This document shows positions 36,768 through 56,351 of a stretch of 64,000 nt of DNA, one piece after another; the stretch's first letter is position 1; every line of letters starts with the position of its first letter. The translations under genes were made by a program, and so were the position numbers. Under the pieces are notes generated by a model. That model saw nothing but the letters and a program-made list of their open reading frames with translations, ran no database searches and had not been told where the DNA came from. The DNA is from Polyangiaceae bacterium (GTDB taxonomy: Bacteria; Myxococcota_A; Polyangia; Polyangiales; Polyangiaceae). The stretch lies in the NCBI GenBank assembly GCA_033763455.1, contig JANRKO010000039.1, positions 161,499 through 225,498 of the forward strand, read 5' to 3'.

Positions 36768-38753
36768 TCAAAGTGACGAACGACAATACCGAGTGAGCGA
36801 GCCGTCCGCGTGCCCCGCAAAGATATCACCGCTTGGAGTAAACACAGAAGCTGTGGCGAACGCGTTGAAGCTTCGAACCTCACGCGTTTTGGTATGAAAC
36901 AGTTCCCCGTCAGCCAAAACCCAATCACCCTCCTTCGAGAGCCGCGGGCGGTGGCCAGCCAACGGCAAATCCAACAACACACTCCCATCGGCAGCCGAGT
37001 ACAGCCGACTCAAGCAAGGGGCTGCATCGCGCTCCGAACAACCAGAAACCAACAAGACATCACCCTTGTCGGAAAGCTCTGCCCACCGGCTAGGCCAAAG
37101 CTCAGGATCGATCCCATTGGCGGAACCCCAAGCGAGAGTGCCATCCGTGCGGAACTTCTCTGGGGTGCTGGTATATACCCACTCGCTGTCAGGAGAAAAC
37201 ACAGCTGCGGGGAACTTATCCTGCGTCTTCAACAGCGCCACCTGCTGCAGACTAGGAACGGAGCGCACGGACGCCCCCAAGCCATATTCTGCCCCTGCAA
37301 CTAGGCGACCGTTCGGCGAAAAACGCATTTGATTGAGGACCGCGTTACCAAAACCAGAAACGCTCGCCACGATCGACGCAGTTTGAACGTTGAGGCCAGT
37401 ACGCATGTCGATCAAGGCACCACCGTCACCCGCGATCGCTGCCAGCGACCCATCAGCAGACACGTCCGGCACTGTGGTCAGACCACCGCCAGCCATCCAA
37501 ATTAACACGGGTTCGGCGCGCTCAGAGGCCAAGGACCACGCTAGGTTCTCGGCACCCCCGCTTACCAAAGCCGTACCTTTAGCGTCCATCGCGAGCGCTG
37601 TGATGCTACCAGCGGGCACTCCGAGCAGGCGGGATGCTCCAACCCCAGCAAGCGGAACCAGCCGAACAACACTGTCCGCACGCCCGAGAAACTCCTCAAG
37701 CACCAGAGCGAATTGTTCGTTATCGGAAACTTCGACCTGCCCGCGCGCTTCTACAGGAAGCGTCTTGACCAAACTCCCGTCCTCTACCGCATAGACTTCA
37801 TTGGAAATGACCATGTGAGTAGAGTTCTGCGCAAAGGCGAACGGCTGCTCATTGTTGAGCGCCTTCACCCATAAAACAGAGCCCACATCGACCTGAGCTA
37901 GGTGCAGCCAGAATGTCTTTTCCTGAGTGTTAGGGTCCACCGACGTCTGCACAAAGGCCACATATCGGCCATCTGGAGACGAAATCGCCTTTTCTATGGG
38001 GCCAACGTTCAGCTGAGGCGCGGGAAGGGTCCCCAGTGCGTCGGGTGAGGTGGCTCTGATACCCATGCTCCCCGCCAGAAGCAAGACTTCATCATTCATC
38101 GCGAAGCCAAAAGCCCCTGAATCAGGCAGAGGGACCACGGCACCACTCTGCGCATTCACAACGCAGGGAACTGCTCCGTCTAGAAGTAGGTACTTCCCGC
38201 TAGGAGAAAACCTCGCGGGCCCACGTGGAACGCACACTTCAGACACGCTGACGTTCTTCGAAATCTCCAGGCTCGCACTCTCCCGAAAAAGAACGCTTGC
38301 AACACCAACATCCGCTACGAGCTTTCCATTCGTCGAGAGTGCCAAGCTTCGCCTGGTATCGCGAAGGCCATCCCTGCCGAGCGGCGCGGATACCGCTCTT
38401 AGTTCACGCCCGCTCACCGTATCGTAATGCGCAATGCCGCCGCCTCCATGAGCTACATACAGGGTGGCCCCAGCGTCACCGAAAACGGCACTCGACACGC
38501 TCTTTTGCGTAGATCCACAGGCGGACCAGGACCACTTCTCCGACCCGCTGGAGCTCGGCTGTGTCTCAGGCGGGATAACGTTGGGCGGCATCATCTCGGA
38601 CGAAGTACTCCCTGACCCCATCACCGAGACGGATGACCCCGTCGGCGCCGCAGGTGTCTCCTCCAAGTCTGAACTCGTGACTCGCCCGCAACCCCAAGCG
38701 CCAGCAAGTCCTGATAGCACTGCGACGAAAACTGAGCGTTGGAACGTCAACAT
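36768..38753 (-). CDS. WD40-like beta-propeller lipoprotein
   Basis: Lipobox AWGC; recurrent FSPSG, SSPDG, FSPNG, FTPSG turns. Confidence 0.75.
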   Translation of the reverse strand: MLTFQRSVFVAVLSGLAGAWGCGRVTSSDLEETPAAPTGSSVSVMGSGSTSSEMMPPNVIPPETQPSSSGSEKWSWSACGSTQKSVSSAVFGDAGATLYVAHGGGGIAHYDTVSGRELRAVSAPLGRDGLRDTRRSLALSTNGKLVADVGVASVLFRESASLEISKNVSVSEVCVPRGPARFSPSGKYLLLDGAVPCVVNAQSGAVVPLPDSGAFGFAMNDEVLLLAGSMGIRATSPDALGTLPAPQLNVGPIEKAISSPDGRYVAFVQTSVDPNTQEKTFWLHLAQVDVGSVLWVKALNNEQPFAFAQNSTHMVISNEVYAVEDGSLVKTLPVEARGQVEVSDNEQFALVLEEFLGRADSVVRLVPLAGVGASRLLGVPAGSITALAMDAKGTALVSGGAENLAWSLASERAEPVLIWMAGGGLTTVPDVSADGSLAAIAGDGGALIDMRTGLNVQTASIVASVSGFGNAVLNQMRFSPNGRLVAGAEYGLGASVRSVPSLQQVALLKTQDKFPAAVFSPDSEWVYTSTPEKFRTDGTLAWGSANGIDPELWPSRWAELSDKGDVLLVSGCSERDAAPCLSRLYSAADGSVLLDLPLAGHRPRLSKEGDWVLADGELFHTKTREVRSFNAFATASVFTPSGDIFAGHADGSLTRYCRSSL

Positions 38754-38902
38754 ACGAGCAGCCTATGTGGCAGTGAACGGCGCAACAACCCTCGCGTTGC
38801 CCTCGGTACATGGCGAGGGGAATTGCAAGGCTCCGACGCAAACCAAACGCAAACCCTCCCAACTGTGGCTGAAGGATGGGCGGTTGCTCGGGCGGTTTGC
38901 TC

Positions 38903-38923
38903 TGTACGTCACATTACCGTACA
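38903..38923. promoter_or_regulatory. Putative operator of the DUF1778/GNAT TA locus
   Basis: TGTACG-N9-CGTACA, about 24 nt before ATG 38947. Confidence 0.6.
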
Positions 38924-38946
38924 CTGTTGAAATCTCGGCGATCACC

Positions 38947-39237
38947 ATGGCACGATCAAACACTGCAGAGCCTCGTAGCCACCGCCTTGAGGCGCGCATT
39001 GCCCCAAAGGCGCTCGCTCTCATTAGGCGCCCTGCTGAGGCCAAAGGAAGCAGCCTGAGCGATTTCGCTGTGGCTGCTGCCCGCGAAGCTGCTGCCCGCG
39101 AACTTGAAGAGCAGCACATCATTCGGTTATCGGCCCAGGAACAACGCCAATTTGTCGCCCTTCTGCTCGATCCCCCCAAGCCGAACAAGGGCCTAAAGCG
39201 CGCTGTCGCCGCCCACACGAAGCTCATCAAGCGTTGA
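38947..39237 (+). CDS. DUF1778 (TacA/AtaR-type) antitoxin
   Basis: RLEARI...SLSDFAVAAA...IRLS...FVALLLDPPKPNKGLKRA. Confidence 0.9.
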   Translation: MARSNTAEPRSHRLEARIAPKALALIRRPAEAKGSSLSDFAVAAAREAAARELEEQHIIRLSAQEQRQFVALLLDPPKPNKGLKRAVAAHTKLIKR

Positions 39238-39238
39238 C

Positions 39239-39372
39239 GTGTCACCTCCGTTTACAATCGAGCTCCTAGGTTCGCAGCATAAGAGGGAAGCTTTTGCTTG
39301 CGGCGCCGAAGCGCTCGACCGGTATTCTCAGGAGCAAGTTGGCCAAGACGTTCGTAGACGTGCAACCGCCTT
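39239..39372 (+). pseudogene. Truncated GNAT (TacT/AtaT-type) toxin
   Basis: HKREAFACGAEALDRYSQEQVGQDVRRRATA is a GNAT-toxin N-terminus; similarity stops after ~44 codons and no acetyl-CoA motif follows. Confidence 0.8.
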
Positions 39373-39415
39373 ACTTGGGAAGCTGGTCGAGTTTACCCGA
39401 TTGCAAACGGAAGCG

Positions 39416-40330
39416 TTATCTCCACGGTCCGCCCGCTCGCCACAGAGTCAGAAGCAAGGCTCCGCTGGTTGCAGCGTACAACGGACTTTCGACGAATGCG
39501 GCAACCGCCTCGACGGTCGAGACAAGGCTCTGCGCGTCGCGAACACCTGCCTTGCGCACGAAGCCCGACCACTGGGTCTTCTTCGTCGGATCCTCCGTGA
39601 ACGCGTCAGTGAGCGCGATAGGAGTGCTTGTTGGAAGAGGCGTTTTTCGACGTTCGAACGTCGCGCGGATAGCGCGGGTCAGAAGCTTCCCATCGAAGTC
39701 GAAATCGCGCGCTAGGACAGCCACGTCGTAAAAGTCCTTCATGCGGCTGTTCGCCATCCCAAGCTGCACCATCGCGTCGAGCTTCTCTGCAACCACTGTT
39801 TCACGCGGGTATGCTCGCAGGAGTGGCGGGGGGAAGTTCAGTAGCGGCGGGAACTCGACAACGCTTGCTTCCGGCGTGATGACATCTCCGAATCCGACAT
39901 CAACCTGGAGCCGCACTTGTGCCGTCGTCACACGAGCGACGACCTCAACGCGAACGCCTCCGTATTGCTGCTCCTCGCGGATTAGGCCAACCGCAAGCGT
40001 TTCGAGGTCAAAGCGGACGCCATCGTCGGGAACGTCGAGCGCAAGCACTTCGGCGAAGATGGAACGCACCCGGCTCTCGCCTGGATCTCCAAACCCGAGC
40101 AGGTCAAGGTCGCGAGTGGCGCGATGCGGCTTGCCCGTCCACAGAGTAAAGAGAGCCGCGCCCTTGAGAACAAACCTCTCGCCGTGCTTGGACGTTGCGA
40201 GCCGGAAGAGTAGGCGCTCGTTCGCATACCTCGTAAGCACGAGTTGGAAATCCTCGCCCTCAGTCCTTGCGAGGTGAAGGAGGCGAGCACGCACGGAGGC
40301 ACCGACGTCCTTCACGGTTGTCTTCGTCAC
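39416..40330 (-). CDS. abiEii: AbiEii nucleotidyltransferase toxin (type IV TA)
   Basis: FVLKGA, RATRDLD, AEKLDA, NSRMKDFYD. Confidence 0.92.
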   Translation of the reverse strand: MTKTTVKDVGASVRARLLHLARTEGEDFQLVLTRYANERLLFRLATSKHGERFVLKGAALFTLWTGKPHRATRDLDLLGFGDPGESRVRSIFAEVLALDVPDDGVRFDLETLAVGLIREEQQYGGVRVEVVARVTTAQVRLQVDVGFGDVITPEASVVEFPPLLNFPPPLLRAYPRETVVAEKLDAMVQLGMANSRMKDFYDVAVLARDFDFDGKLLTRAIRATFERRKTPLPTSTPIALTDAFTEDPTKKTQWSGFVRKAGVRDAQSLVSTVEAVAAFVESPLYAATSGALLLTLWRAGGPWR

Positions 40331-41976: not shown

Positions 41977-42024
41977 GAGCCAAGGATAGCACCATTCGGT
42001 GCCCGAGGCCGAGTGTCCCGGTAA

Positions 42025-42154
42025 GATGCCCCCTCTCGTCCGCCCTCCGGCGCGCGGAAGAATGTTGAGTGGCGAACGGCAACTCGCGCGCCTGCGGGCG
42101 GCCGGTCTCGCCCCTTATCCGTGCGAGGTTAGCTCGCACGGATGGGGGAGACGG
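42025..42154. repeat. ~130-bp structured island repeat, copy 1
   Basis: gatgccccctctcgtcc...ggcgcgcggaagaatgttg...cgcgcgcctgcgggcggccggtctcgccccttatccgtgcgag-loop-ctcgcacggatggggg. Confidence 0.95.
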
Positions 42155-42162
42155 TTACGCAC

Positions 42163-43074: not shown

Positions 43075-44226
43075 ATGACGCGCGTGCACGTCAAGCCGGA
43101 GCTTCTGCGCTGGGCCTGCGAACGGTCGCGGATCGACGAGGTCGTGCTGAGCGTGCGCTTCCCGCACGTCGAGGCGTGGGAGCGAGGACACAAACAGCCG
43201 ACGCTCAAACAGCTCGAGGCGTTCGCCAAGGCCACGCACACGCCGCTTGGCTACTTCTTCCTCCCTGAGCACCCCGTCGAGCGCCTGCCAATTCAGGACT
43301 TCCGCACTGTTCGCAGCAAGGTTGCTCAGCCGAGCGCCGACCTACTCGACACGATCTACGCCATGCAGCGGCGGCAGGACTTTATGAGCGAGGAGCGGCG
43401 CGACGGTGAGGGCGAGCCCCTCGATTTCGTTGGCAGTGCGCGCCTCGCTGATAACCCGGAGGCGGTGGGGCGCGAGATGCGTCGCGTCGTCGGGCTCGAC
43501 GACGGCTGGGCGGCGGAGGTCAAGACCTGGACGGAAGCTGTGGGTGAGCTGCGGCGGCGCGCAGAGAAGCTCGGCGTGATCGCGGTGATCAACGGCGTCG
43601 TGGGGAACAACACGTCCCGCAAGCTCGACGTTGACGAGTTCCGTGGCTTTGCACTGACGGACTCGTACGCCCCGCTCATTTTCGTGAATGGCGCTGATGC
43701 GAAGTCGGCTCAGATGTTCACGTTAGCGCACGAGCTAGCGCACCTTTGGCTCGGACGCGACGGCGAAGGGGTTTCGGGTTTCGAGGGCATCTTCCCGGGT
43801 GGCGAGCGCGTCGAACAGTTCTGCGACCGCGCGGCAGCCGAGTTTCTCGTGGCGGGCGACGAGCTGAAGAAGCAGTGGCCGACGGTGAAACAAGCAGGCG
43901 ACCGGTTCGAGCGGCTCGCGCGTCATTTCAAGGTCAGCCCCATCGTCGCAGCACGGCGTGCAATGGATCTGCGCCTCGTGGGTCGCGATGCGTTCTTCAA
44001 GTTCTACAATGACTACACGCAGCGCGAACGCGATCAGGTGAAGGCCGCGAGCGGTGGTGACTTCTACAACACGCAGAACACCCGCCTCGGCCAGAGCTTC
44101 GCGCTCGCCGTCATGCGGGCCGCCCTCGAGGGGCGGTTGAGCTTCAAAGAGGCGTACGACCTCACCGGTCTGCGCGGCGGCGCGTTTCAGGAGTACGGGC
44201 GTCGACTGGGAGTGCCGCTGCCGTGA
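43075..44226 (+). CDS. HTH + ImmA/IrrE Zn-metallopeptidase
   Basis: WERGHKQPTLKQLEAFA (HTH), DFR, FRGFAL, FTLAHELAHLW. Confidence 0.92.
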   Translation: MTRVHVKPELLRWACERSRIDEVVLSVRFPHVEAWERGHKQPTLKQLEAFAKATHTPLGYFFLPEHPVERLPIQDFRTVRSKVAQPSADLLDTIYAMQRRQDFMSEERRDGEGEPLDFVGSARLADNPEAVGREMRRVVGLDDGWAAEVKTWTEAVGELRRRAEKLGVIAVINGVVGNNTSRKLDVDEFRGFALTDSYAPLIFVNGADAKSAQMFTLAHELAHLWLGRDGEGVSGFEGIFPGGERVEQFCDRAAAEFLVAGDELKKQWPTVKQAGDRFERLARHFKVSPIVAARRAMDLRLVGRDAFFKFYNDYTQRERDQVKAASGGDFYNTQNTRLGQSFALAVMRAALEGRLSFKEAYDLTGLRGGAFQEYGRRLGVPLP

Positions 44227-44348
44227 ACAAAGGCGCCGTCTACATCCTGGACTCCGACGTCTTCATCGCAGCGAAGAACACCTACTACGCCTTCGACATC
44301 TGTCCCGGTTTCTGGGAGTCGATCGTCCAAGCCCACCGCCACGCGTAG
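44223..44348 (+). pseudogene. Truncated DUF4411 (PIN-fold) partner of the ImmA gene
   Basis: Manual translation: MNKGAVYILDSDVFIAAKNTYYAFDICPGFWESIVQAHRHA-stop; GTGA overlap with the ImmA gene. Confidence 0.85.
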
Positions 44349-44472
44349 CGCCTCGCATACTTGCCGACCTCAGCTTTGCTGAAGTCGTACTCTTCGAGGA
44401 GATCCGGATCATTGGTAATGGGCTTGCTCATGTGCGTCGTCGCTCGCTTGGGGTAGCAATTCTAGCGCTCGC
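44341..44472 (-). pseudogene. BrnT 3' remnant plus BrnA-like 5' remnant
   Basis: Minus strand SARIATPSERRR-stop overlaps ATG 44431: MSKPITNDPDLLEEYDFSKAEVGKYARRYA, after which similarity is lost. Confidence 0.65.
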
Positions 44473-44910
44473 TCAGCGAGGCTTCGTCGTGCCTGGCACG
44501 AGTTCGAAGCCGAAAGTCCAGAAATCAGAGTCAAAGGAAAAAATACGAAACATGTCGTAGCGCAACATCACGGCTGCACACAAAGCATCATGGTAGCTCA
44601 AACTCTTGTCGGCATACTTCTGGACGAGTTCAATTGCCTTGTGCTCGTCCTCTTCACCGAATGCGATCGTCCGAACTCTTGACGCGCGGAGCATGCCGAA
44701 CCCCTTCAGAGCGAGATCTAGGGAACCATCATATCGAAGACGTGTGAACGATTCGTGTGCGGTTACATCGACAGCACAGAACAACACATCCGTCTGCATC
44801 TTGGCGAAGCATTCACTCGCAATGCTGTGATAAGCGTCATCCACATCCGCAAGCGCCACGGTCGCAGATGTGTCGATGAGAACGGCATTTGCGTAAGCGA
44901 CCCCAATCAC
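44473..44910 (-). CDS. PIN-domain ribonuclease
   Basis: LIDTSA, AHESF, SYHDAL, FSFDSDF: all four acidic positions present. Confidence 0.88.
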   Translation of the reverse strand: MIGVAYANAVLIDTSATVALADVDDAYHSIASECFAKMQTDVLFCAVDVTAHESFTRLRYDGSLDLALKGFGMLRASRVRTIAFGEEDEHKAIELVQKYADKSLSYHDALCAAVMLRYDMFRIFSFDSDFWTFGFELVPGTTKPR

Positions 44911-45137
44911 TTGAGAGGCGCTAGATTCGGCTCCCCGGAGACCTTATGCCACCCCTCAGCAAGCGCCGGTGGAACCCCTTCAACGACGCGTCGCAGCGCA
45001 CCGTCGATTACACGGTACGTTCCTGGAGGAAGGAACGACTGGGCGTGTGGCGCCGATTCCGGAAGTGACCTTGTAAAGTAGTTCACCGCATGCTCAGCAG
45101 TGGAGAGGGAGAATTGTTCGGAAACAAACTTCGTCAT
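44907..45137 (-). CDS. 76-aa hypothetical protein
   Basis: 4-nt start/stop overlaps with both neighbours. Confidence 0.75.
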   Translation of the reverse strand: MTKFVSEQFSLSTAEHAVNYFTRSLPESAPHAQSFLPPGTYRVIDGALRRVVEGVPPALAEGWHKVSGEPNLAPLK

Positions 45138-46240
45138 TTGTCGAACCCTTGTTGCGCTTTGTTGTGTGCCCAGCCGCGAGACAGTACCTCAACATGGAAC
45201 GACCGGGGAAGCCCTCTAATAAGTGGCATCGGTTGACCTGGCGGAAGCTGGATCTGGACTTCTGGCGGGAGGGCCGAACTTTGTCCTAGCACGGCCTGGG
45301 TCTCGTGCAGGTAGCCCCAAGCAGTAGACTCCAAGACGCCCCCAATAAATCGCACTTTTTTGGACGTCTCATCCCCCATAAACGCCGAGAGGAAGAATGG
45401 ACGCCGAAGCTCGAAGGTATCCTCGTACGAGCGCAAGAGGACATCAAGCGCGCCAGCTAGCTCGTCGGAAGCGAAGTCAACATGCTCGGCCCCAAGGATG
45501 TCTCTTGCTTCGTAGCGGTTAACCATGTGCAGATGAGACCAAAACCGCGTCGTCAGCGCTTCAATGATCTGATCCTCACGCCGATTGGGAATGGGGTGGA
45601 GCAGAAGCAGCTTCTTGGCAAGCTGCTGAATTTGCTGGTGCACGCGGTAGACGTTTCCTAGCGCAAGGGGGTGTACCTCGTGTGCCAATCGCCCAAGATA
45701 AGGACCCACGTTCTGCCGCAGCGCCTCTAGTTCGTTGGCAGGGTCGATCTGGAACTGGTCAAGGATAAAACTGCGAAAGGCTCGTACATCTTCCACGCTA
45801 ATTGCAAGCCTCGAAGTCGACCTTGCGGGATCCAAGGGATTGAACTGATTCCCAGTACTTGGATCAATTGGGCTGAGCTCAGCCATAGCCGTCAGCACAA
45901 TCTTCTTTGCACCTAACGCAAGGAGGCTACCTGCACTGTGGCAACGAAACGGCACGAGCACTTCGAAGTCTGGATCAAACTCACGCACTATGCTGACCAA
46001 CGGCCACACGCCGTTTACATCACCGCCTCGCGTGTAGAGACAGATGTCGATCTTAGATGAGCCGGTTTCCTTCAACACCCGAAATAGTGCAGCTTTTGTG
46101 TCGGCATTAAATGCCGTGTCCAGCCCCAGTGGCACTGCCGGTTCGCTCAATCTGTCGAAGTTGAAGAAACAGATCATCTTTCGTCCAGGCCTGAGCGCCT
46201 CGACCTGCTCGATCAAACCCTTACGTGTCTCGTAGTCCAT
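45134..46240 (-). CDS. ClpP/crotonase-fold serine protease (SDH_sah-like)
   Basis: IDICLYTRGGD, VLVPFRCHSAGSLLALGA, ELSPIDP, FWSHLH. Confidence 0.85.
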   Translation of the reverse strand: MDYETRKGLIEQVEALRPGRKMICFFNFDRLSEPAVPLGLDTAFNADTKAALFRVLKETGSSKIDICLYTRGGDVNGVWPLVSIVREFDPDFEVLVPFRCHSAGSLLALGAKKIVLTAMAELSPIDPSTGNQFNPLDPARSTSRLAISVEDVRAFRSFILDQFQIDPANELEALRQNVGPYLGRLAHEVHPLALGNVYRVHQQIQQLAKKLLLLHPIPNRREDQIIEALTTRFWSHLHMVNRYEARDILGAEHVDFASDELAGALDVLLRSYEDTFELRRPFFLSAFMGDETSKKVRFIGGVLESTAWGYLHETQAVLGQSSALPPEVQIQLPPGQPMPLIRGLPRSFHVEVLSRGWAHNKAQQGFDK

Positions 46241-46383
46241 AGGTCACCTGACGCGTGTTCAACTCGGCTTCTCTCCCGCTCGTGGCCGCAACCAAACGCG
46301 AGCGTAGGATTATGCCGGGCTGCCTCCCATGGCAAGATTTGGTGCGCAATGGGTTTCATCCCCCTGGGTTCTGTGATGCATGC

Positions 46384-46514
46384 GATGCCCCCTCTCGTCC
46401 GGCCTCCGGCGCGCGGAAGAATGTTGGCTCGGGAGCGGTAGCTCGCGCGCCCTGCGGGCGGCCGGTCTCTCCCCTTAGCCGTGCGAGGTTGAATCGCACG
46501 GATGGGGGAAACGG
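46384..46514. repeat. ~130-bp structured island repeat, copy 2
   Basis: Aligns end to end with copy 1; differences fall mostly in the loops. Confidence 0.95.
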
Positions 46515-46571
46515 CTAGAGATCGCCCCTTCGCTACGGCGCCCATTCTGCTAGAATCCACGAGGAGTAACC

Positions 46572-46829
46572 GTGAACGCGATTAAAGTTCAAACGACGGT
46601 AGACGAAGCGACCGCCGCAGCGATCCCCGCGTTTCGGCCCTTGCTTGGGAAGCGAGTCGAGCTTACCGCATCGCAAACGAAAGCAGAGCCCGCCGAACCT
46701 GCAGAGCGGAAGCTGACACTCGACGAGCTGCTTACGCGGCGCATCGACGCACCAGCTGGTGCGCCGCCGCTAACGGACGACGATATTCAGCGAGCAATCG
46801 TCGCGGGCGCGCTCAGCGCAAACCTTTGA
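46572..46829 (+). CDS. Putative antitoxin (VapB-like position)
   Basis: GAGGAG RBS, 85 aa, overlaps a PIN N-terminal remnant. Confidence 0.65.
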   Translation: MNAIKVQTTVDEATAAAIPAFRPLLGKRVELTASQTKAEPAEPAERKLTLDELLTRRIDAPAGAPPLTDDDIQRAIVAGALSANL

Positions 46830-47840: not shown

Positions 47841-47934
47841 GGGTCGAGAGATTTTGTAAGGGTAGCTTATTCGAGAGCGAACGGGGGAGTTACTGGCGGA
47901 ATCGCGCGTGAAACCTGAGAGCTGACGGACCTGC

Positions 47935-48063
47935 GATGCCCCCGCTCGTCCGGCCTCCGGCGCGCGGAAGAATGTTGAGTGGCGAACGGCACCTCGCGCA
48001 CCTGCGGGCGGCCGGTCTCGCCCCTTATCCGTGCGAGGTTGGACTCGCTCGGATGGGGGAGAC
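47935..48063. repeat. ~130-bp structured island repeat, copy 3
   Basis: Aligns end to end with copy 1. Confidence 0.95.
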
Positions 48064-48124
48064 TGAGGGAGCGACAAGTCCGAGAACGCAGGCGCCGTAC
48101 GAATACTTGAGGGCACGCGTGCGC

Positions 48125-49075
48125 TCAGTAAGAACGCCTCACCGTTACCTGCGCTAGCGGGTAGTATTTTGAATACGCCGCCAGTGCCGCCTCTGCTGCG
48201 TCGGCCGACCCTTGCCTGCCGGCTACGAAGACCCCGCTCATCCCGTGGCTCGCCAGATTGAGGAGCCCGCCGTTGCCATGCTTAGCAGAGGAATTTTCAA
48301 GTTCAAAGGCGACCACAGGAATCGCTGTTGCTTCTTCCGGCGTGATACCTGGTACTGCCGCCTTCGGCGACATCGTCCCCACCGCCTCGACGAAAGACGC
48401 GAGACCCTTCGGCATTGGGAGAAACCAGACCTGATCGATCTTGCTCTGAGTGGGAGCACGCGAAATTGGGAACAAGCCCCGCGCGTCATCGTGCACAACA
48501 AACCCGGCTCGCTCACCTATCTCCCTTAGGTTTGCCCTCGTGCGGCGCGCCCAATCAGCTTCGCCCCCGCTACCCTTTGGAAGTTGCTGTTTCAACTCAG
48601 TAAGAGCCACTGATAGCTCGATTCGAGCAAGCTCTGGCGCCCAGCGGGCATCGAGAACCATGATCCGAGTCGCTCCAAAGTAGGCTTCCTGAGACTGGTG
48701 CAATCTGAGCCCGCGCTCGTAAAGATTGTCAACGCTTCCGCCTCGGGGAGCGAGCACGCCGAACCAAGCCCCGGAGACTCGTAGGTTCGCCAGATCCGCT
48801 TGCATTCCCTTCGTCGAAGCGTCGGAACCTTCGACTTCGAATGCCATGACGGGCAACGTTTCGCCATAAAGGCGAGGAGTAGCTCCCACCTCGTTGAGAG
48901 CTGCTAGCTGCGACGCCGTCAGCCTCATTGTCCAAAGGATATCAAGGCGAGGCGCGTAGATACGCGCGGGTTGCACGCCTTTCGTGGAAACGACCACCTC
49001 GCGGAGTGCGGAAAAGCCCATTCCCTGGGCCATTTTCAGGAAAAGATCATGAACTTCGTCGGTGGATCCTTTCAC
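48125..49075 (-). CDS. Protein with two tandem PD-(D/E)XK-like (restriction-endonuclease fold) domains
   Basis: Internal duplication: GMGF..RLDILW..PVMAFEVEGS..K..LANL versus RAGF..KIDQVW..PVVAFELENS..K..LLNL. Confidence 0.6.
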   Translation of the reverse strand: MKGSTDEVHDLFLKMAQGMGFSALREVVVSTKGVQPARIYAPRLDILWTMRLTASQLAALNEVGATPRLYGETLPVMAFEVEGSDASTKGMQADLANLRVSGAWFGVLAPRGGSVDNLYERGLRLHQSQEAYFGATRIMVLDARWAPELARIELSVALTELKQQLPKGSGGEADWARRTRANLREIGERAGFVVHDDARGLFPISRAPTQSKIDQVWFLPMPKGLASFVEAVGTMSPKAAVPGITPEEATAIPVVAFELENSSAKHGNGGLLNLASHGMSGVFVAGRQGSADAAEAALAAYSKYYPLAQVTVRRSY

Positions 49076-49083
49076 GTTCAGTT

Positions 49084-50277
49084 CTACCGATCACCATCAA
49101 TGTAAATATCCCGCGTTTTCTTCTCGCCACGCTGAGTTCTTGCGAGCACACTCTCCAATGGGCGGCGAGGTTCGCCGTTCCGGCCATAGTACGCGATTCC
49201 TGAAGCGGCCGAAGTCACGTCAGGGAGATCCTTCATGATGCCTGACCAGCCGAGTGCCCAGATGTTGGCTGAATCGGTTTGGTGGGGGTGCTGGAGCACG
49301 ACTGTCGGTCTGAATTGTCGCGCGAGCTTGCGCATCAAGTCACAACGTTGGCGACGCTCGCCTCCCGGTTTTTGTCGAGAGTGACTCCTGGGGCTCCACA
49401 TGTTGAGATCGTGACAGCCGAGAACGAGGACCCGTTCACCACCTATCTCGAGCAGGTGGCTTCGCACGTCCGCGACGTGGAGCAACGTGTCTTCTTGGTC
49501 CGAAATAGGGTAAGATTTTCCCGTCCAGCGGAGCAGCCTGCCTGTAGACACATCGAAGACAGCGACAAGCTCGGCGTGATGATCGTCTAAACGGCCGTCC
49601 TCACCGAGATCCAAGCCAAGAGTGATAAACTGAACGCGGCCGCGTGCAGTACTCAGCACCCGCGAGGAAACGACCTCCTTTGCGTGTTCAGTTGCTACCC
49701 CCAACACCTTTGCGAGATCCTTCTCCGTGGAGTTCCAGCCCAATTGACCCCGAAAATTCCTCGGGAAAGGCTGCTGCGCAAATCCTCCCGGCGTAAGAAG
49801 GAACTTGGCTCCAAGATTAGCAGGCAATTTCTTCACGGCATCCAAGAGCAGGCGTTCCGCGTTCTTAAGGCTGGCCGGCGGACACCCGTTCACCACGGCG
49901 CGAACAATTACTGGTGCATCGCTCCGCGACGCATCAGGTTTTGATGGCCGTGGCACGGACGCGCGCTTCTGCGTCTGCGGGAGCACGCTGCTTTCTCGCG
50001 CCTGAGATTTTCCTGGTCCCGCGATTTCAAATCCCAGGCGTCGTAACGGCTCATTTGTCTGCGCACCGCCGTAAAACTCTGAGGTGCTAAAGGCCCTGCC
50101 AGTTGCACATTCGACGGCAAGCGAAAGGAGGTACTTCGGTGGATACGTTCTCCCTGCATGGACCACCGAGTACTTGGTCGAGCTATGAGTTTCGGGAAAG
50201 CCTTCTCGCTGGATTCGCTGGATCGCCTCCAGAACATTCTGTCGGGTCACGAGCTGAATTGGGTTTGTTTGCGTCAT
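49084..50277 (-). CDS. McrA/McrB-type N-terminal head domain fused to a divergent carbon-nitrogen hydrolase (nitrilase-like) domain
   Basis: N-terminus VTRQNVLEAI..STKY..GRTYPPKY..FYGG..N..LRRLGFEI; C-terminus FLLTPGGF, TGKSYP, VLVLGCHDL. Confidence 0.6.
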   Translation of the reverse strand: MTQTNPIQLVTRQNVLEAIQRIQREGFPETHSSTKYSVVHAGRTYPPKYLLSLAVECATGRAFSTSEFYGGAQTNEPLRRLGFEIAGPGKSQARESSVLPQTQKRASVPRPSKPDASRSDAPVIVRAVVNGCPPASLKNAERLLLDAVKKLPANLGAKFLLTPGGFAQQPFPRNFRGQLGWNSTEKDLAKVLGVATEHAKEVVSSRVLSTARGRVQFITLGLDLGEDGRLDDHHAELVAVFDVSTGRLLRWTGKSYPISDQEDTLLHVADVRSHLLEIGGERVLVLGCHDLNMWSPRSHSRQKPGGERRQRCDLMRKLARQFRPTVVLQHPHQTDSANIWALGWSGIMKDLPDVTSAASGIAYYGRNGEPRRPLESVLARTQRGEKKTRDIYIDGDR

Positions 50278-51581
50278 AGCTTTCCCTTGTCCTTTTCGGA
50301 CCGTCCCACTTCGCGCAAGAACATCTGAAATTGAACTAGCTGCGCCCTTTGAGCCTCAGATGGAGAGTCTGCGTCGAAGTGCATCAGGTCGTTGCGGGTC
50401 TGCCGGGCAATGTGAAATCGCTTCATGAACTCAGCTCGATCAACGTGAAGGTCCAGACGGCCCCAGTTCTGCGGATTCTCTAACAGCCGCCCTAACTCCC
50501 CCAGGTTGAGATCAGCGACGTTCTTGACTTCCCTCGGATCGTGCTCGAGCTTGAATGCCTCAAGTTCACGCCGAGTGAAGTTGCCGCGCTCTGTGAGCAT
50601 GCGGAGTTGCCTCTCAATTTCTCCGAGAACGATAAACGGGCCCGCATGGTCATGCAGGAACTGCCCAAGAACCGCTCGCGTTATGATGCCCGTAATGAGG
50701 TTTTCCCCATCCTTCACAACGACATATCCCGATGAAACCACCTCAGGAATAATGTCAAAAAAGGAATCGTTGGTGCTTACCGTGGGCGCATTCCGTTGCA
50801 TCACGTCTCTCACTCGAGAATCCAGAGTGCCCTTTTCCAGCGCTAAATACTTCGCAATGTCGGACCAGCGCAGAACTCCATCAAGCGAGCGAGGGTTTCT
50901 GAACACCAGAAGGTGCGAGATCTGACTGGCCATCATCCGCGTCACGGCGACGCGAAGGAGGTCGTCAGGGGCCGCGCTCACAAGATCTTTGATGCGGGCC
51001 TCCGGAAGTGACCCCACTCTGGGCGTTGCATCCCCTGGAGAATCCATCTTTGCGGGAGGCTCTTCGCTTTGCTCCGAGCTACCAGGGGCGGAAGCGGTTT
51101 CCGGTTGGGTATCAGGCGTACGGGGGACCCGCCCCAACGTCACAGCTGCGTCCATGGACACTGCCATGAAGTCCGGTGTCGTTTCGAGATCAAAGCCTGT
51201 GAGGGCGCCACGGATCCTTTCCACCGTCGCCTCTGTTCTGCGCTCAACACCGAACCAGCGAAGGAGTTGACGCACCGCAACCTCAACAGGGGTCCCGTCC
51301 CGATCAATGGCCGCGCTGGCCTCCTTAAGCTTGGCAACGTGGAGCGGCGTATCTGTATCCGCTACGAAATGAAGCTCCTCGTCGACATCAGCATTCTCAA
51401 AGTCAGGCAACGTACGAAGGCCGTGTTTGGCCAGCCTTGATCGCATGTTCTCAACGATATTCGCGCCGCGCCTTCGAGATCCGAATCGTTCCAGGAGGTC
51501 GCGCGCACTCATGCGTTCAGGTTTCCCCTGCCTCACCCTGGCCGCTACCATCTCTAACCAGCTATCAACCGCCCTTGGCAT
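50274..51581 (-). CDS. Duplicated N-terminal domain + CBS pair + HEPN (Swt1-like) protein
   Basis: Two copies of R.LL..FG..RR....V..(M/I)R..L....L.T.PDF; CBS pair (AVTRMMASQISHLLV, GIITRA); HEPN EIERQLR, LGEL and RNDLMH (RxxxxH). Confidence 0.75.
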   Translation of the reverse strand: MPRAVDSWLEMVAARVRQGKPERMSARDLLERFGSRRRGANIVENMRSRLAKHGLRTLPDFENADVDEELHFVADTDTPLHVAKLKEASAAIDRDGTPVEVAVRQLLRWFGVERRTEATVERIRGALTGFDLETTPDFMAVSMDAAVTLGRVPRTPDTQPETASAPGSSEQSEEPPAKMDSPGDATPRVGSLPEARIKDLVSAAPDDLLRVAVTRMMASQISHLLVFRNPRSLDGVLRWSDIAKYLALEKGTLDSRVRDVMQRNAPTVSTNDSFFDIIPEVVSSGYVVVKDGENLITGIITRAVLGQFLHDHAGPFIVLGEIERQLRMLTERGNFTRRELEAFKLEHDPREVKNVADLNLGELGRLLENPQNWGRLDLHVDRAEFMKRFHIARQTRNDLMHFDADSPSEAQRAQLVQFQMFLREVGRSEKDKGKL

Positions 51582-51803
51582 CCTTGATCCGCCTCTCGCC
51601 TGACCGTTCCGATGTTAGCCCGGTCGCAAGTCCCGAATAGTGCTACCGAAACTTGGGGCTAGTCAAGCCGCTAAGAGCCTTCTGCCCGTGGATCTAGCGC
51701 GAGAGCTGATTATCAATTCCCAGGGGGTGGTGAGGTGCGCCGACGATGAGCCGGGCCTAGAGTCGGGGTTGCCGGACTGAAGCGCAGTGGGGCGATGCCA
51801 TTT

Positions 51804-51928
51804 GGTGCCCCCTCTCCTCCGGCCTCCGGCGCGCTGAAAAATGTTGAGCGGGGAACGGCACCTCGCGCGCCTGCGGGCGGCCGGTCTCGCCCCTTTTCCG
51901 TGCGAGTTTGGCTCGGACGGATGGGGGG
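51804..51928. repeat. ~130-bp structured island repeat, copy 4 (most diverged)
   Basis: ggtgccccctctcctccggcctccggcgcgctgaaaaatgttg...cctgcgggcggccggtctcgccccttttccgtgcgagtttggctcggacggatggggg. Confidence 0.92.
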
Positions 51929-52168
51929 GATGATTACCTCAAACTCTAGCGCCCGCCTCGCTGCTAGTGCGGCGGTGTGATCAAACTTTCCTGAGCCGCG
52001 AGGTTTCTTTCGGCCTTAAATCTGACTAGGTGTCGAGCGTCCAAGCGTCCAAGCACGGCGTATCGATGGCCTTTGCCAGAAGTGCAAGGAACCGGAAAGG
52101 GTGCCGGGCGCTTCGCTTCGATTCTACGCCCAACCTGTCGAAGTACCGACCTCAAGGACCTGACGAAG

Positions 52169-52651
52169 CTATCGCCGTTCCAAGAGTGTGGGCCTAGACG
52201 AGCCGCGCTCAACACACCACACGCAGAGCGACTGCGTACCCAGGATGACGAACAGCAGGAAAGATTGCTCATAGCGAGCTTTGCGCGCGACACGACGCCA
52301 GTCATCGATGTCTTGCCGCGAGGGCGACGGATGGGGCTCAGGATGAGAGTGCCACTCTCCGAGATAGATTCGAGTTCCTTGACTATCGATCCACGCTTGA
52401 TGCACACGCGCCTGCGCGCCCGTGCGGCTTCTTAAGAATCGGTATCTACTTCGAAGGTCATTGCTGCATGGCGTTGTTACTTGATCAATGACGACGTCGC
52501 CGGTCGCGAGGATGATCCTCCCGAGCAGCACTCCGCCAGCTTCGAACGCACCTGTATCCAACTGCCGATACCCGAGCAAGGTGTCGACGCTCTCCTCACC
52601 GAAGGCGACGAGACGATCGCCACCAAGCCTAAAGACTTCAGGCGCGCTCAT
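52169..52651 (-). CDS. cap3: CBASS Cap3 JAB/MPN isopeptidase
   Basis: EAGGVLLG, YLGEWHSHPE..PS..D. Confidence 0.92.
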   Translation of the reverse strand: MSAPEVFRLGGDRLVAFGEESVDTLLGYRQLDTGAFEAGGVLLGRIILATGDVVIDQVTTPCSNDLRSRYRFLRSRTGAQARVHQAWIDSQGTRIYLGEWHSHPEPHPSPSRQDIDDWRRVARKARYEQSFLLFVILGTQSLCVWCVERGSSRPTLLERR

Positions 52652-54344
52652 CTTTGCATCCCGGACACCCAGGGCGCGCGAAACGAGTTGTGGATTGTCT
52701 TTCGCCGGGCTTGAAGCCGCTGGCGCGCGCGCTCACCTTGAACCCGCGGCCGAGGAAGTCCTCCAGGTCCTCCATCCAGCTTGTAAGCGTGTTCGAGCTG
52801 TTACCCGCAAGTACTCGAAGAGCGGCGCGTTGCGCCTCGCAAGCAGCGCGAGTCGCGTCCGCCGCGCCGTACGGGGTGAAAGTACCTGCGCAGCCCGCCA
52901 ATGACTTATCGAACACTTGCCGGTCCGCCGCAAAGAGCGCCTCGTTCGTGAACACGTCATCATGGCTTCGACCAAAAAGACAATAGTAGCAACCGTGAGC
53001 CTTTGGAGCTGGAACCTCCAAAACATGGCCACCCAGTCCGTACGCCTCGAGCCACACATGTACTCGCGGCAAGTCCCGGGGCAGCGCCTTCGTCAGGTCG
53101 AGTTCTAGCGTTTCGTCCCCTACGGCGATGATGATTAGGTCTGAGCCAGTGATTGCTTCTGGGGTTCTTTCCAGTACGCTTTCGATGGGCTCCCGGATGG
53201 GTTCGACAATCGCGTGGGGGAAGTGTTCCCCGAGCATGAGCTGCAGCGCTTCGACCTTTGACCTGCCAACGAACCGGATCCCAGCTGCGTGCCGGTGGAC
53301 GTTTGCCTCTTCAAGCAGCTCTGGATCGATCAACCGAACGCGGCCAACCCCAGACGCTAGCAATTGGAATGCACACGCACTACCCACAGCACCGCACCCA
53401 ACAAGAGTAACCGTTTTTTTGGCAAGGTCGGTAGGCAAGCCAACGCGCGCCAATAGAAAGTCCGCGTCCAGTCGCCTAACCGCGAACCCGCGTGCAGGTC
53501 CGTGCCCTTGCAGAACTCTAGCAATCAGCTGCGATGGACGCCTCCGCATCGCGGGAATGGGACGGAGTGGGAACTCGAGGCCGACGACAATACGTGACTC
53601 ACCGGATGTGTCGGGCATAGACAGTAGCACATTCAAACTCTTTGCCTGAGCCTTGACCAAGTAGGAATTGAACACGCTTGCATCAGGTGCACGACATCGA
53701 ATCTTACGGATGAATTCCCCCACGCGCATCGGATCATCGAACTCCGGCGCTGGCAGGGCCTGCTCAAGTCGAACAAAGAGCGCCCGTTCGCAGTGCACTC
53801 CCCTGACGCCGACACGACCAGCCCACTCGCGAAACTGGCGAGGGTCGTCGGCGACGACCGCTTCAAGAGTTCCGAATCGCGCACGCGACTCCAAGGTGCG
53901 CCAAATCACTTCACGGCTTGGGCCTGCAGCGTTGCAGATGCTGCCCACATCCCCTCCCTGGCGCGGCCAATAGGCCTGGAACTCCCGCTGCAGCTCGACG
54001 TCGGCACTATCAGTGAGACCATCAGCGAGTACGCGCTTCGACCGCTCCACCGCGGCTCGGACGATCTCGCCCGGGCGTTCAATGTCGAGTCGTACACCGC
54101 TCGGAGCCAAGCAGATTTTTCCGTCGCGTCCCACATGTGGAACACGACGGGGAAGCGCGTCGCGCGTCACGCGTACGATCGGCAGCGCGGCCGGAAAACG
54201 CTTCGGCAACTCGAGCGTTGCGGGTACTATCGTACCGCCCAGTGGAAAGCTGCCTGTCCAACTCCGCTCGCCCGTGCGCGTAAACCCAAATTCCGCGCAG
54301 GCTTGTGCTGCCTCGTCCAGGGCTTGCGCAACTAGCAGCGTCAC
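52638..54344 (-). CDS. cap2: CBASS Cap2 E2-E1 (ThiF) fusion
   Basis: E2: FP..LP, PHVGRDGKICL; E1: VGCGAVGS, LIDPELL..NVHRH, GCYYC, GCAGTFTPY. Confidence 0.9.
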   Translation of the reverse strand: MTLLVAQALDEAAQACAEFGFTRTGERSWTGSFPLGGTIVPATLELPKRFPAALPIVRVTRDALPRRVPHVGRDGKICLAPSGVRLDIERPGEIVRAAVERSKRVLADGLTDSADVELQREFQAYWPRQGGDVGSICNAAGPSREVIWRTLESRARFGTLEAVVADDPRQFREWAGRVGVRGVHCERALFVRLEQALPAPEFDDPMRVGEFIRKIRCRAPDASVFNSYLVKAQAKSLNVLLSMPDTSGESRIVVGLEFPLRPIPAMRRRPSQLIARVLQGHGPARGFAVRRLDADFLLARVGLPTDLAKKTVTLVGCGAVGSACAFQLLASGVGRVRLIDPELLEEANVHRHAAGIRFVGRSKVEALQLMLGEHFPHAIVEPIREPIESVLERTPEAITGSDLIIIAVGDETLELDLTKALPRDLPRVHVWLEAYGLGGHVLEVPAPKAHGCYYCLFGRSHDDVFTNEALFAADRQVFDKSLAGCAGTFTPYGAADATRAACEAQRAALRVLAGNSSNTLTSWMEDLEDFLGRGFKVSARASGFKPGERQSTTRFARPGCPGCKDERA

Positions 54345-55330
54345 GCAGACGAACTCGACGTGACAATCGCGGGCGCGCGAGTCTTGCTTGCCGTGTCCTT
54401 GGGGTCAGGCACTGTGAAGGTGTCACCCAACTGTCGCTGGATAACGCTGCACGCCTTGACGGGATCGGGCTCGTTCGCGGCCGACGATAAAGCGTCGGCA
54501 AGCAGCGCGAACCGTCGTTTTAGCGCGTTCATTTCGTCATCGCTCAGCTTGGCAAACATATCTTCGAATTCTGGAGTCGGCTTCTTGGCGACGAGGCGTC
54601 CGATCGCATTCGCGGCGGCCGTCGCGACCTGTCGCAACGCTTCAAGATCGTCGGACGTGTGGTGCCAGCTCTTCACCGGCGCGGTGAGAGAATCAATGGT
54701 GAGCAAGGTGTACGCGAGACCTGAAGGCTTTGCGCTGCCGTCAGTCGGCATCCACACGTCGTCCCACCGCTTGAGATATCGAATAACTCGGCGGAGTTGG
54801 TCGATGCCAATGGCGTCCTCAGTGCCTTTGAAGCGATCCTTCGCCTCGCCAACGTACGCCATAAGCTTCTTCACATCTGCGGCAACCCAGCGGTCCTCGT
54901 TGTGAGCCAGGCGTGAATGCTCACGACCATTCTCGTCCGCCCAGGTCGCATAGATCACTAGGTCGAGATGGTAGCCCTTCGCGTAAGAAACGCGGATGCA
55001 CGGCCCCTTGCTCACAACATTAGCGGTATGCGATTTAATCGCGTCCCAAACCCAGCGCCTTACCTCGGCGGCGGTGAACTCGCTCTCGCTAAACCTGAAA
55101 TGCAGTCCGACATCCATATCGTAGACCTGCTCGCCAGTGGGTTTTACACCGGTCTTCATAGCGTACGATCCCTGGAGCTTCGCGTCGAACCCAGGGCGAC
55201 TGTCTTGTTTCAGTTTTTCGCGAATCTTCTCGAGGATGATTTCTCGCTTCTCACGAAGCTCCTGCTCGAGCTCGTAGTCAAACCGGATGTCAGCGTGAAA
55301 CTTTTCAAAGTATCGTTGAATGTCAGCCAT
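54341..55330 (-). CDS. CBASS cGAS/DncV-like nucleotidyltransferase (CD-NTase)
   Basis: LQGSYAMKT, YDMD, HLDLVIY, IRYLKRW; disordered tail ending SSSSA. Confidence 0.92.
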   Translation of the reverse strand: MADIQRYFEKFHADIRFDYELEQELREKREIILEKIREKLKQDSRPGFDAKLQGSYAMKTGVKPTGEQVYDMDVGLHFRFSESEFTAAEVRRWVWDAIKSHTANVVSKGPCIRVSYAKGYHLDLVIYATWADENGREHSRLAHNEDRWVAADVKKLMAYVGEAKDRFKGTEDAIGIDQLRRVIRYLKRWDDVWMPTDGSAKPSGLAYTLLTIDSLTAPVKSWHHTSDDLEALRQVATAAANAIGRLVAKKPTPEFEDMFAKLSDDEMNALKRRFALLADALSSAANEPDPVKACSVIQRQLGDTFTVPDPKDTASKTRAPAIVTSSSSA

Positions 55331-56351
55331 TGTTTACTCCTATCTCGAGAAGCGCGGCCACCTGGCCACGCGTGGAATTGTCCGTGCCTGCCGCTGTTCC
55401 GATTTGCTTCAACGTGGCCGTCGCCGATTGGTTTACGATGTCGAGCCCAAGGCCGGCGCGACCCGGGAGTTCGACGCGAAGGTAATGTTTCCGTCTGTCT
55501 GCGCTGGAGAACAAGCACTGCAGGGCGCAGTGGTGCAGGCCGACGCCGGAGGCGACAAAGAGATCCGAAAGCGGCAGCGCCCACCCGAAAGCACCGCGAC
55601 GCGATCGCCACCCTGTTTTCAGCGCGGACTTGGGGACATTCTCCGTCCTCAGAACACGCGGTGGTGATATCGAGAAAATGCGCAGATTGGTGGGGTCGAC
55701 GTCCAGGTATTCGAGCGCCTCGGTGTAAGCAAGCAGTGCGGGATTATTTGCGCACACACCGCCGTCGACAAACGTCTCAATCGCGCCCGTTGTCGGATTC
55801 TCTAGCGAAACAGTGGGGAAGAAGATAGGCGCGGAAGCTGTCGCCAGCGCGACGTCCCGGACGAAGTAATCGCCATGTGCGGTGAGCTTGGAAGGATGGT
55901 GATCCGTCTTGAAGAGTCGCGGCTTCCCGGTTGTGAGGCAAAGGGCAGGAACAACAACGGCGCGCCCGCGAGAAGAGATGTCTTTCAAACGTAAATCGCG
56001 GAACGCTTCCGCGAGAGCAACCTTGAGTGGCCCGTTACTCCATTTTGCGGTGAAGAGCGAGCGGATGGTCCGCGAGGTTCTCGACAGCCAACCGAGCGGC
56101 TGCGGAAACACTGACGCGCCCAGTTTTTCATACAGCTCAACGACTTCGGCCGCTGTCATGCCGCTCGCGAGCGCAAGGGCAATTATCCCTCCTGTGCTCG
56201 TCCCGCAGAAAAGGTGGAACTGATCGCTGGCCTTGAAACCCAGGTGGCGCTCGAGCTCGGCCAGGAAGGTTGCTGCCCCCAAACCCAGATACCCGCCCCC
56301 GTCAAGGCAGAGCGCTCGGGTAGTGTGGCACTCATGCTGAACGGATAGCAT
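55323..56351 (-). CDS. capV: CBASS patatin-like phospholipase effector
   Basis: LDGGG, GTSTGG, SAPIFF, VDGGVCANNP. Confidence 0.92.
   Translation of the reverse strand: MLSVQHECHTTRALCLDGGGYLGLGAATFLAELERHLGFKASDQFHLFCGTSTGGIIALALASGMTAAEVVELYEKLGASVFPQPLGWLSRTSRTIRSLFTAKWSNGPLKVALAEAFRDLRLKDISSRGRAVVVPALCLTTGKPRLFKTDHHPSKLTAHGDYFVRDVALATASAPIFFPTVSLENPTTGAIETFVDGGVCANNPALLAYTEALEYLDVDPTNLRIFSISPPRVLRTENVPKSALKTGWRSRRGAFGWALPLSDLFVASGVGLHHCALQCLFSSADRRKHYLRVELPGRAGLGLDIVNQSATATLKQIGTAAGTDNSTRGQVAALLEIGVNNG

Follow-up and report, generated by a model that had tools for sequence, protein, structure and literature searches.

In the genome of Polyangiaceae bacterium (assembly GCA_033763455.1), three genes on the minus strand follow each other so closely that the end of each is written over the beginning of the next. 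They lie in a stretch of 64,000 nucleotides (nt) of contig JANRKO010000039.1 (positions 161,499-225,498 of the forward strand), which was analysed as a whole and is referred to here as the window. The first gene encodes a predicted serine protease of the ClpP fold, the second a small protein of 76 amino acids (aa), and the third a PIN-domain protein (Table 1); together they will be called the triad. The stop codon of the protease gene and the start codon of the small gene share four nucleotides (ATGA, 45134-45137), and the stop codon of the small gene and the start codon of the PIN gene share another four (GTGA, 44907-44910). The three open reading frames (ORFs) are real, translationally coupled genes. 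A sequence-only reading of the window had already suggested a protease-gated toxin system here, and the coordinates and the two overlaps that it gave were found to be correct when the sequence was read again. It had also placed the triad about 140 nt from the second copy of a repeat; this copy is at 46381-46517, and its distance upstream of the protease start was measured as 140 nt. Neither a sigma-70-like promoter nor an intrinsic terminator turned up in a scan of 44200-46650. The G+C content of the triad is 0.55, against 0.60-0.65 in its flanks. Directly downstream of the PIN gene, a 48-aa ORF on the same strand (44285-44431, minus) has no Pfam match and overlaps a truncated DUF4411 gene on the opposite strand; it may be a gene remnant.

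Table 1. Features of the triad and its leader (positions in the window)
Feature	Position	Strand	Size and start
Predicted ClpP-fold serine protease ORF	45134-46240	minus	368 aa, ATG start
Small protein ORF, presumed antitoxin and protease partner	44907-45137	minus	76 aa, ATG start
Putative PIN-domain (VapC-like) ribonuclease toxin ORF	44473-44910	minus	145 aa, GTG start
Leader, presumed operon promoter region	46241-46380	minus	140 nt, from repeat copy 2 to the protease start

The same arrangement is found in other genomes. A synteny set of 84 loci was assembled with the protease, four from reference genomes and 80 from metagenomes (individual loci carry numbers with the prefix L), and downstream genes were sought by tblastn with the small protein and the PIN protein of the window and then by iterated profiles. 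When loci were collapsed at 95% or higher protease identity, 71 clusters were obtained. Downstream sequence of 300 nt or more is available for 60 clusters, and in 57 of them the small gene follows the protease gene (the exceptions are L004, L034 and L072); of the 50 clusters with 780 nt or more, 48 have it. Among these 50 clusters, the PIN gene is present in 42, in one of them cut to 81 aa (L013), and a PemK/MazF gene replaces it in two. The PemK/MazF proteins, in L019/L020 and in L041, score 32.1 and 39.4 bits against PF02452, for which the cut-off is 23.1. Thus, 44 of the 50 clusters have a toxin gene of one kind or the other after the pair, and the gap is usually between -4 and +33 nt. The remaining six have no toxin gene: L003, L046, L060 and L077 keep the small gene, and L004 and L034 keep neither. 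Among 47 loci, 30 show a 4-nt overlap between the protease stop and the start of the small gene, and in the others the start is within about 15 nt of the stop, with small-gene starts chosen by a rule that favours 4-nt overlaps. Whether the protease is linked to the other two genes elsewhere had been set beforehand as a check on the idea of a protease-gated toxin, and these counts give a positive answer. In one of the loci without a PIN gene, L003 (Planctomycetaceae), a strongly hydrophobic 74-aa ORF is present about 245 nt downstream (5597-5821, plus), which may encode an alternative effector at the membrane or have no connection with the pair.

The three genes are inherited and diverge as one unit. 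Across 36 loci, the distance matrices of protease and small protein (r 0.85), of protease and PIN (r 0.93) and of small protein and PIN (r 0.83) are all correlated (Mantel p 0.001 each), and within a closer clade of 23 loci the correlations are 0.70-0.78. The protease is the slowest of the three, with a mean p-distance of 0.51, followed by the PIN protein (0.62) and the small protein (0.72). Behind the constant pair of protease and small protein, the toxin is exchangeable. In a FastTree phylogeny of the protease, rooted at the midpoint and read without branch supports, the two MazF-linked proteases (L020 and L041) occupy separate positions within the PIN-linked clade, and the toxin-less loci are scattered. 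These tree positions point to PIN as the older state, followed by at least two toxin replacements and several losses.

The first protein of the triad is, as judged from its structural model, a ClpP-fold serine enzyme that forms a distinct clade and is distantly related to the SDH type. In the AlphaFold (AF2) model (mean predicted local distance difference test score, pLDDT, 85.1; predicted template modelling score, pTM, 0.79), an N-terminal ClpP-like core of residues 1 to about 268 is followed by a C-terminal beta-rich part at about 290-360. The best structural match found by VIA-align is ClpP (Z 11.6, root-mean-square deviation 4.4, 176 aligned residues), the next ones are the stomatin protease 1510-N (Z 10.3) and SppA (Z 9.7), and crotonases rank below these three. 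Foldseek also returned ClpP, SppA and 1510-N, so that the model falls within the ClpP/crotonase fold. The three-stranded beta part beyond residue 270 or so is hardly covered by these structural matches. A search of the PDB with the protease profile gave no sequence match at E values up to 1. For the SDH family, the catalytic residues are described in Pfam as Ser, then Asp, then His along the chain. Among 41 aligned sequences of the protease family, S102 (in the motif CHSAG), D126, E150, D151, H190, and H236 and H238 (in the motif WSHLH) are invariant; the Ser and the candidate His picked out by the sequence-only reading are both among them. The loop at 234-237 that carries H236 has a pLDDT below 50 in the model. 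The invariant Ser, Asp and His of the protease, together with the acidic residues of the PIN protein described below, indicate that the presumed catalytic residues are under constraint.

The assignment to PF01972, the SDH family, which had been made from the sequence, stands for most of the listed relatives but is weaker for the protein itself. Precomputed matches to PF01972 are present in 118 of the 120 listed homologues, but the protease of the window scores 29.2 bits, below the gathering score of 31.3, and this over residues 53-132 only. Against the NCBIfam model Clp_like_SDH (NF047768) it scores 44.5 bits, where the cut-off is 250, so that neither of the curated SDH-family thresholds is reached. 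The protease family has 538 homologues, of which the 120 listed are 55-100% identical to it over nearly the full length, and the source names include Dehalococcoidia, Nitrospiraceae, Gemmatimonadetes and Terriglobia. A phage protein group of unknown function, phrog_11747, matches the protease at 2.4e-30. Long homologues of 413-574 aa were considered as natural fusions and were rejected, since they proved to be N-terminal mis-calls.

The third protein scores 37.1 bits against the PIN profile PF01850 (cut-off 23.6). Its four acidic residues, which the sequence-only reading had reported as kept, are indeed conserved among 38 sequences: D13, E53 and D127 are invariant, and D108 is conserved in at least 90%. 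With a profile score above threshold and four conserved acidic residues it is a PIN-domain protein of the VapC type, and it is probably an RNase toxin with an intact acidic active site. The relatives of this PIN protein were followed in a sample of 401 genomes of its own phylum (400 genomes and the genome of the window). Matches at E values of 1e-8 or lower were found in 36 of them, with 189 bits for the PIN protein of the window and 106 bits for the next best. In the 29 other PIN loci from these genomes, neither the protease gene nor the small gene is present. Eight non-triad PIN genes were inspected for what lies upstream: four have an RHH_1 (ribbon-helix-helix, RHH) protein above the Pfam cut-off, three a sub-threshold RHH protein, and one none. 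These partners indicate that the PIN protein of the triad comes from a VapC lineage normally paired with RHH antitoxins, and that the protease and the small protein occupy the place that an RHH antitoxin usually has. In the Polyangiaceae-type loci, an ordinary PIN gene is found just upstream of the triad (L001:577-1211, L006:1126-1539 and L008:2922-3341). Those of L006 and L008 match PF01850, and in L001 a small ORF that resembles an RHH gene on visual inspection comes before the PIN gene. Thus, the classical pair and the protease-linked triad occur side by side.

The second protein has no match in PADLOC or PHROGs and no credible match in Pfam or NCBIfam. Its AF2 model consists of a short helix, a beta-hairpin and a second short helix and is mostly non-globular (pLDDT 69.6, pTM 0.33), with a pLDDT of about 88 in the hairpin at residues 41-50. 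The ESM Atlas model has a pLDDT of 0.41; it gave no usable feature match, and all its structure matches have template modelling (TM) scores below 0.5. Two motifs can be recognised in the small protein of the window, F-S-L-S-T-A-E at about 8-15 and the hairpin P-G-x-Y-R-V-I-D-G-x-L-x-R-V at about 38-51. In the family, the consensus of the N-terminal motif is Q-F-S-x-S-T-A-E, then N-Y-F-x-G, and that of the hairpin is L-P-P-G-x-Y-R-V-I-D-G-x-L-x-R. Both motifs are kept whichever toxin follows, and also where none does, while the linker and the tail vary; the remainder outside the motifs is variable and predicted to be disordered. Antitoxins are often largely disordered. The small proteins linked to MazF are longer, 97 and 89 aa from the chosen start, and they have both motifs and an added C-terminal tail that ends in a W-D...D-x-V-Y-D-x-P-like sequence. 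In BLASTP, the tail of L020 aligned weakly, from end to end, with that of an RHH antitoxin (E 0.002 in a single comparison). From this division, the conserved part of the small protein would face the protease and the variable part would face the toxin.

A profile of the small protein has 386 matches at E values of 0.001 or lower among 1.84 billion cluster representatives, and 147 of the best 150 are 56-121 aa long. Because nearly all of these 150 are short, this is a stand-alone family without DNA-binding fusions. The three long matches (1111, 3439 and 924 aa) were considered as fusions and ruled out, as they are repeat beta-sandwich proteins that share only the PGxYxV hairpin, or carry an unrelated DUF2604. 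The sequence-only reading had seen no RHH, AbrB or helix-turn-helix (HTH) pattern in the 76-aa protein, and this agrees with the model, which contains neither RHH nor HTH, and with the want of any credible family match. It had also named an ordinary VapB as what would speak against a new system. The small protein is not one: it has no DNA-binding domain and forms a family of its own, and the nearest non-triad PIN genes are paired with RHH genes. The triad is therefore not a canonical VapBC system, in which an antitoxin-family protein such as RHH_1 would be expected upstream of the toxin.

How widely the triad is spread was seen from the same sample and from one of equal size from another phylum. 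The triad was found in one of the 401 genomes of its own phylum and in three of 401 of the other. In the latter, the small protein has matches in three genomes, each time with the protease gene upstream and the PIN gene downstream. Among the 401 genomes of its own phylum, a true member of the protease family is present only in the genome of the window (611 bits, the next match having 88), and six distant SDH-like protease loci (88 bits or lower) were inspected, none of which is in a triad. Viral contigs contain four protease loci, three of them with the triad, and one is on the same contig as L018. In cultured phages, tblastn with the protease found seven records, all partial and 26% identical at most. 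In addition, 116 flanking ORFs were scanned at 34 related loci. They include tyrosine integrases (L018, L040, L057), a serine recombinase (L005), a TIR protein with an SMC-like ATPase (L002), type I R subunits (L025, L030), a ResIII helicase (L010), a Dam methylase (L063) and other PIN proteins (L006, L008). Many housekeeping genes are also among them, and the flanking genes differ from locus to locus. The module looks mobile and sparse, and it is only sometimes found among defence genes.

The reading that we favour, with confidence that is about evenly balanced, is that of a tripartite toxin-antitoxin module in which the small protein is both the antitoxin and the substrate of a dedicated protease, and in which this pair can be combined with different toxins. 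In such a module, the PIN protein would act as an RNase toxin, and the small disordered protein, which is in the antitoxin position, would bind and neutralise it. The two conserved motifs of the small protein would serve as a handle or a cleavage site for the protease encoded upstream, and the toxin would be freed when the protease cuts the small protein. That PemK/MazF can take the place of PIN behind one and the same pair fits a small protein that couples the protease to an exchangeable toxin. There are two options for when cleavage takes place. If it is constitutive, the antitoxin would be labile in any host, and loss of the DNA or shut-off of its expression would lead to release of the toxin. 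Lability of this kind would make the module independent of Lon or Clp of the host, and both addiction and sensing of host shut-off would be possible. Alternatively, the cut may be made only after a trigger, for example phage infection. Constitutive built-in turnover of the antitoxin fits the data equally well as a triggered protease. Of the earlier proposal of a protease-gated toxin, the linkage and the non-VapB nature of the partner were borne out, whereas its mechanistic part is hypothetical.

The triggered option was the one put forward by the sequence-only reading. In it, the protease would sense an infection and cleave the small inhibitor, so that the PIN RNase is released and the infection is aborted. 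The window has a defence-island setting, which only some of the 34 related loci share. Carried further, the protease and the small protein would be a portable "sensor and latch": the protease would stay idle until a phage cue is received and would then cut the small protein at its conserved motif, and the toxin plugged in behind the pair, PIN in most lineages and MazF in at least two, would be released to abort the infection. We regard this as a tentative possibility.

Several points weigh against the tripartite module as described above. First, a protease that is made in step with its own substrate would have to be restrained in some way. Second, the protease scores below the thresholds of the curated family models, and the loop with H236 and H238 is modelled with low confidence. 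Third, some PIN-linked small proteins stop right after the hairpin (L014, L024), so that no toxin-specific tail is evident in them, and the likeness found for the tail of L020 is weak, with the matched antitoxin belonging to a PIN toxin and not to MazF. Fourth, both motifs persist in the four of 50 clusters that have the small gene and no toxin (L003, L046, L060, L077), which suggests that the protease and the small protein may have a function of their own. Finally, because the small protein has no DNA-binding domain, the usual autoregulation would be missing.

The best of the other explanations turns the direction of proteolysis around. In the manner of a type VI system, the small protein would be an adaptor through which the protease receives the toxin and destroys it continuously. 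Adaptor and protease would then jointly play the part of the antitoxin, and the toxin would accumulate when they fail. SocAB, in which an adaptor feeds the toxin to ClpXP, is a precedent. Obligate linkage and co-divergence of the protease and the small protein fit this explanation, as do motifs that do not depend on the toxin that follows, and the missing toxin-specific tail in some PIN-linked small proteins is easily accommodated. However, the known PIN and MazF toxins are stable proteins that are neutralised by binding, and binding to the toxin would be required of an adaptor as well. Small proteins linked to MazF carry an antitoxin-like C-terminal tail, and the gene order puts the small protein in the classical antitoxin position. 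Destruction of the toxin is thus considered unlikely.

The clusters without a toxin raise another question, namely whether the toxin is needed at all. The protease and the small protein could be a self-standing defence pair in which the protease is the effector, the small protein regulates it, and the toxin is an optional add-on or a stabilising passenger. DefenseFinder has a system named FS_HP_SDH_sah (PMC13532340). This anti-phage system pairs an SDH-type protease with a small hypothetical protein. Four of the 50 clusters do keep the two genes without a toxin. On the other hand, a toxin is present in 44 of them at the usual short distance, and the PIN protein co-diverges with the protease more closely than any other pair of the three. 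The scattering of toxin-less loci in the protease tree is as secondary loss predicts. Moreover, the relationship of the protease to the canonical SDH type is remote, and its matches in cultured phages do not exceed the low identity given above. We therefore hold a self-standing pair to be quite unlikely.

It is improbable, further, that the protease acts on the antitoxin without destroying it, either by maturing it from a pro-antitoxin or by chaperoning it, as SecB-like proteins do in the TAC system. The tight coupling to a small, disordered partner would suit such a role, and TAC and CmdTAC are examples of a third protein that controls the fate of the antitoxin (PMC5105189, PMC11618068). The invariant Ser, Asp and His, however, argue for catalysis over mere binding, and a small protein that is already as short as 56-121 aa leaves little room for a pro-region. 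Lastly, the view that the three genes are mere neighbours in a crowded mobile island, with no joint function, can draw on the patchwork of defence and toxin-antitoxin genes in the window, some of them broken, but it can be dismissed: the same order in 42 of 50 clusters recurs across several phyla and is for this reason far beyond chance, stops and starts overlap, the flanking genes differ between loci, and the recurrence of the synteny together with the correlated divergence refutes chance adjacency.

The island in which the triad resides contains, besides the triad, genes for TacA, AbiEi/AbiEii, a DUF5131 protein, an HTH-ImmA/IrrE protein with a truncated DUF4411 protein, CBASS and restriction-modification. 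PADLOC has no match for any of the three triad proteins; the DUF5131 protein matches its candidates PDC-M41B and PDC-M30B. The HTH-ImmA/IrrE gene (43075-44226, 383 aa; Peptidase_M78, PF06114 at 2e-15) overlaps by 4 nt with the gene after it, which is DUF4411 PIN-like and retains 41 aa of the 159-position profile. By its domains this block (43075-44348) is a broken copy of a predicted three-component system of a zinc protease and a PIN-like protein, and it adjoins the triad; the broken pair ends where the lower-G+C DNA of the triad begins. At 38464-39715 (plus), a 257-aa ORF with a C-terminal TacA domain precedes a 158-aa ORF without a Pfam match, and the GNAT toxin expected as the partner of TacA is not recognisable there. 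The sequence-only reading had described most of the neighbouring toxins as broken. This is right for DUF4411, cut to 41 aa, and agrees with the ORF after TacA having no Pfam match, but AbiEii looks whole.

Blocks of defence and toxin-antitoxin genes in the window are separated by four copies of a repeat of about 135 nt (42022-42158, 46381-46517, 47932-48068 and 51801-51937), which are 80-90% alike and have the same orientation. A genome-wide element was considered and ruled out, since the whole 6.56-Mb assembly has four copies and all of them are inside the window. The minus strand of the repeat folds somewhat better than shuffled sequence (z -2.5), Rfam has no match for the repeats, and no integrase was seen nearby in the window. 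The repeats may be cassette boundaries of an attC-like kind, or a small structured RNA. Between copies 3 and 4 there are three consecutive ORFs on the minus strand (48125-51581; 316, 397 and 435 aa), and this block is uncharacterised: a CBS domain in the last ORF is the only Pfam match, and the first ORF has no PADLOC match. It is followed in the window by a type II CBASS operon with a patatin effector, CD-NTase, E1/E2 and JAB (52169-56351, minus), which adjoins type I restriction-modification genes for S, M and R (56588-63286, minus). Far from the triad, Rfam 5_ureB_sRNA (RF02514) is matched with 104.7 bits at 4470-4752 (minus), antisense to a 567-aa plus-strand ORF.

Among the known systems, the predicted three-component systems of an Xre HTH protein, a COG2856/DUF955 (ImmA/IrrE) zinc protease and a PIN-like or RelE toxin come close to the triad (PMC2701414, PMC5499597). 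In these HTH-COG2856-PIN systems, the protease is proposed to cleave the antitoxin, as it is in the triad, and both proposals are predictions only (Makarova 2009, Matelska 2017). The protease of the triad, in contrast, is a predicted ClpP-fold serine enzyme and not a HEXXH zinc enzyme of the PF06114 type. The small protein lacks an HTH and fits into no known family, and the order of the genes is protease, small protein, toxin. Neither ClpP nor S49 proteases occur in the text of PMC2701414 and PMC5499597. VapBC systems with an RHH (CopG-type) VapB have the same four acidic residues in PIN and a small overlapping partner gene upstream; unlike them, the triad has a partner without a DNA-binding domain and a protease gene that is coupled to it in nearly all clusters (57 of 60).

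FS_HP_SDH_sah is similar to the triad, by description only, in its SDH-type ClpP-fold protease, its small uncharacterised protein, its mobile DNA and its association with anti-phage defence. It differs in that the protease of the window is below the thresholds of PF01972 and NF047768. It has two genes and is not known to include a PIN or MazF toxin, and its source is reportedly Fillol-Salom et al. in Cell in 2022.

TAC of M. tuberculosis and CmdTAC are tripartite like the triad. In them, what becomes of a labile antitoxin depends on the third protein, to which an extra segment of that antitoxin is dedicated. Their third protein is a SecB-like chaperone that shields the antitoxin from host proteases, whereas that of the triad is a predicted ClpP-fold protease. 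The logic proposed for the triad is also similar to that of CalpL-CalpT-CalpS and Craspase-Csx30, in which a dedicated protease cuts an inhibitor and the effector is released. CalpL and Craspase are unrelated proteases (Lon-like and caspase-like), cyclic nucleotides or target RNA are known to switch them on, and what they release are sigma factors and similar effectors in place of PIN or MazF toxins. In the main texts of open-access papers, we found no report of a ClpP-like, SDH or S49 protease together with a toxin-antitoxin system or PIN, and the paper on the Tai system makes no mention of proteases. What may be new here, if the favoured reading holds, is a tripartite toxin-antitoxin module that has a dedicated serine protease of the ClpP fold as its third component and, in the antitoxin position, a protein from a family not described before.

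The analysis adds two families that are not described in the literature searched, namely a clade of predicted ClpP-fold proteases of 369 aa with an extra C-terminal domain and a disordered partner of about 70 aa. For toxin-antitoxin systems it has long been disputed whether the toxin is set free by proteolysis of its antitoxin, and the dispute is hard to settle because Lon and ClpXP are pleiotropic enzymes of the host. A module that has its own protease beside the presumed substrate, and an exchangeable toxin, would be a compact test bed of three genes, in which replacing one Ser by Ala should tell binding and degradation apart. It also suggests a role for the small partners of defence-associated SDH-type proteases. 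If the protease is activated by a trigger, the protease and the small protein together would amount to a modular sensor, which evolution has already connected to two kinds of toxin. If the "sensor and latch" holds, the triad would represent a new class of self-contained, protease-gated abortive-infection systems, and it would provide a mechanism for the uncharacterised defence modules that consist of an SDH protease and a small protein.

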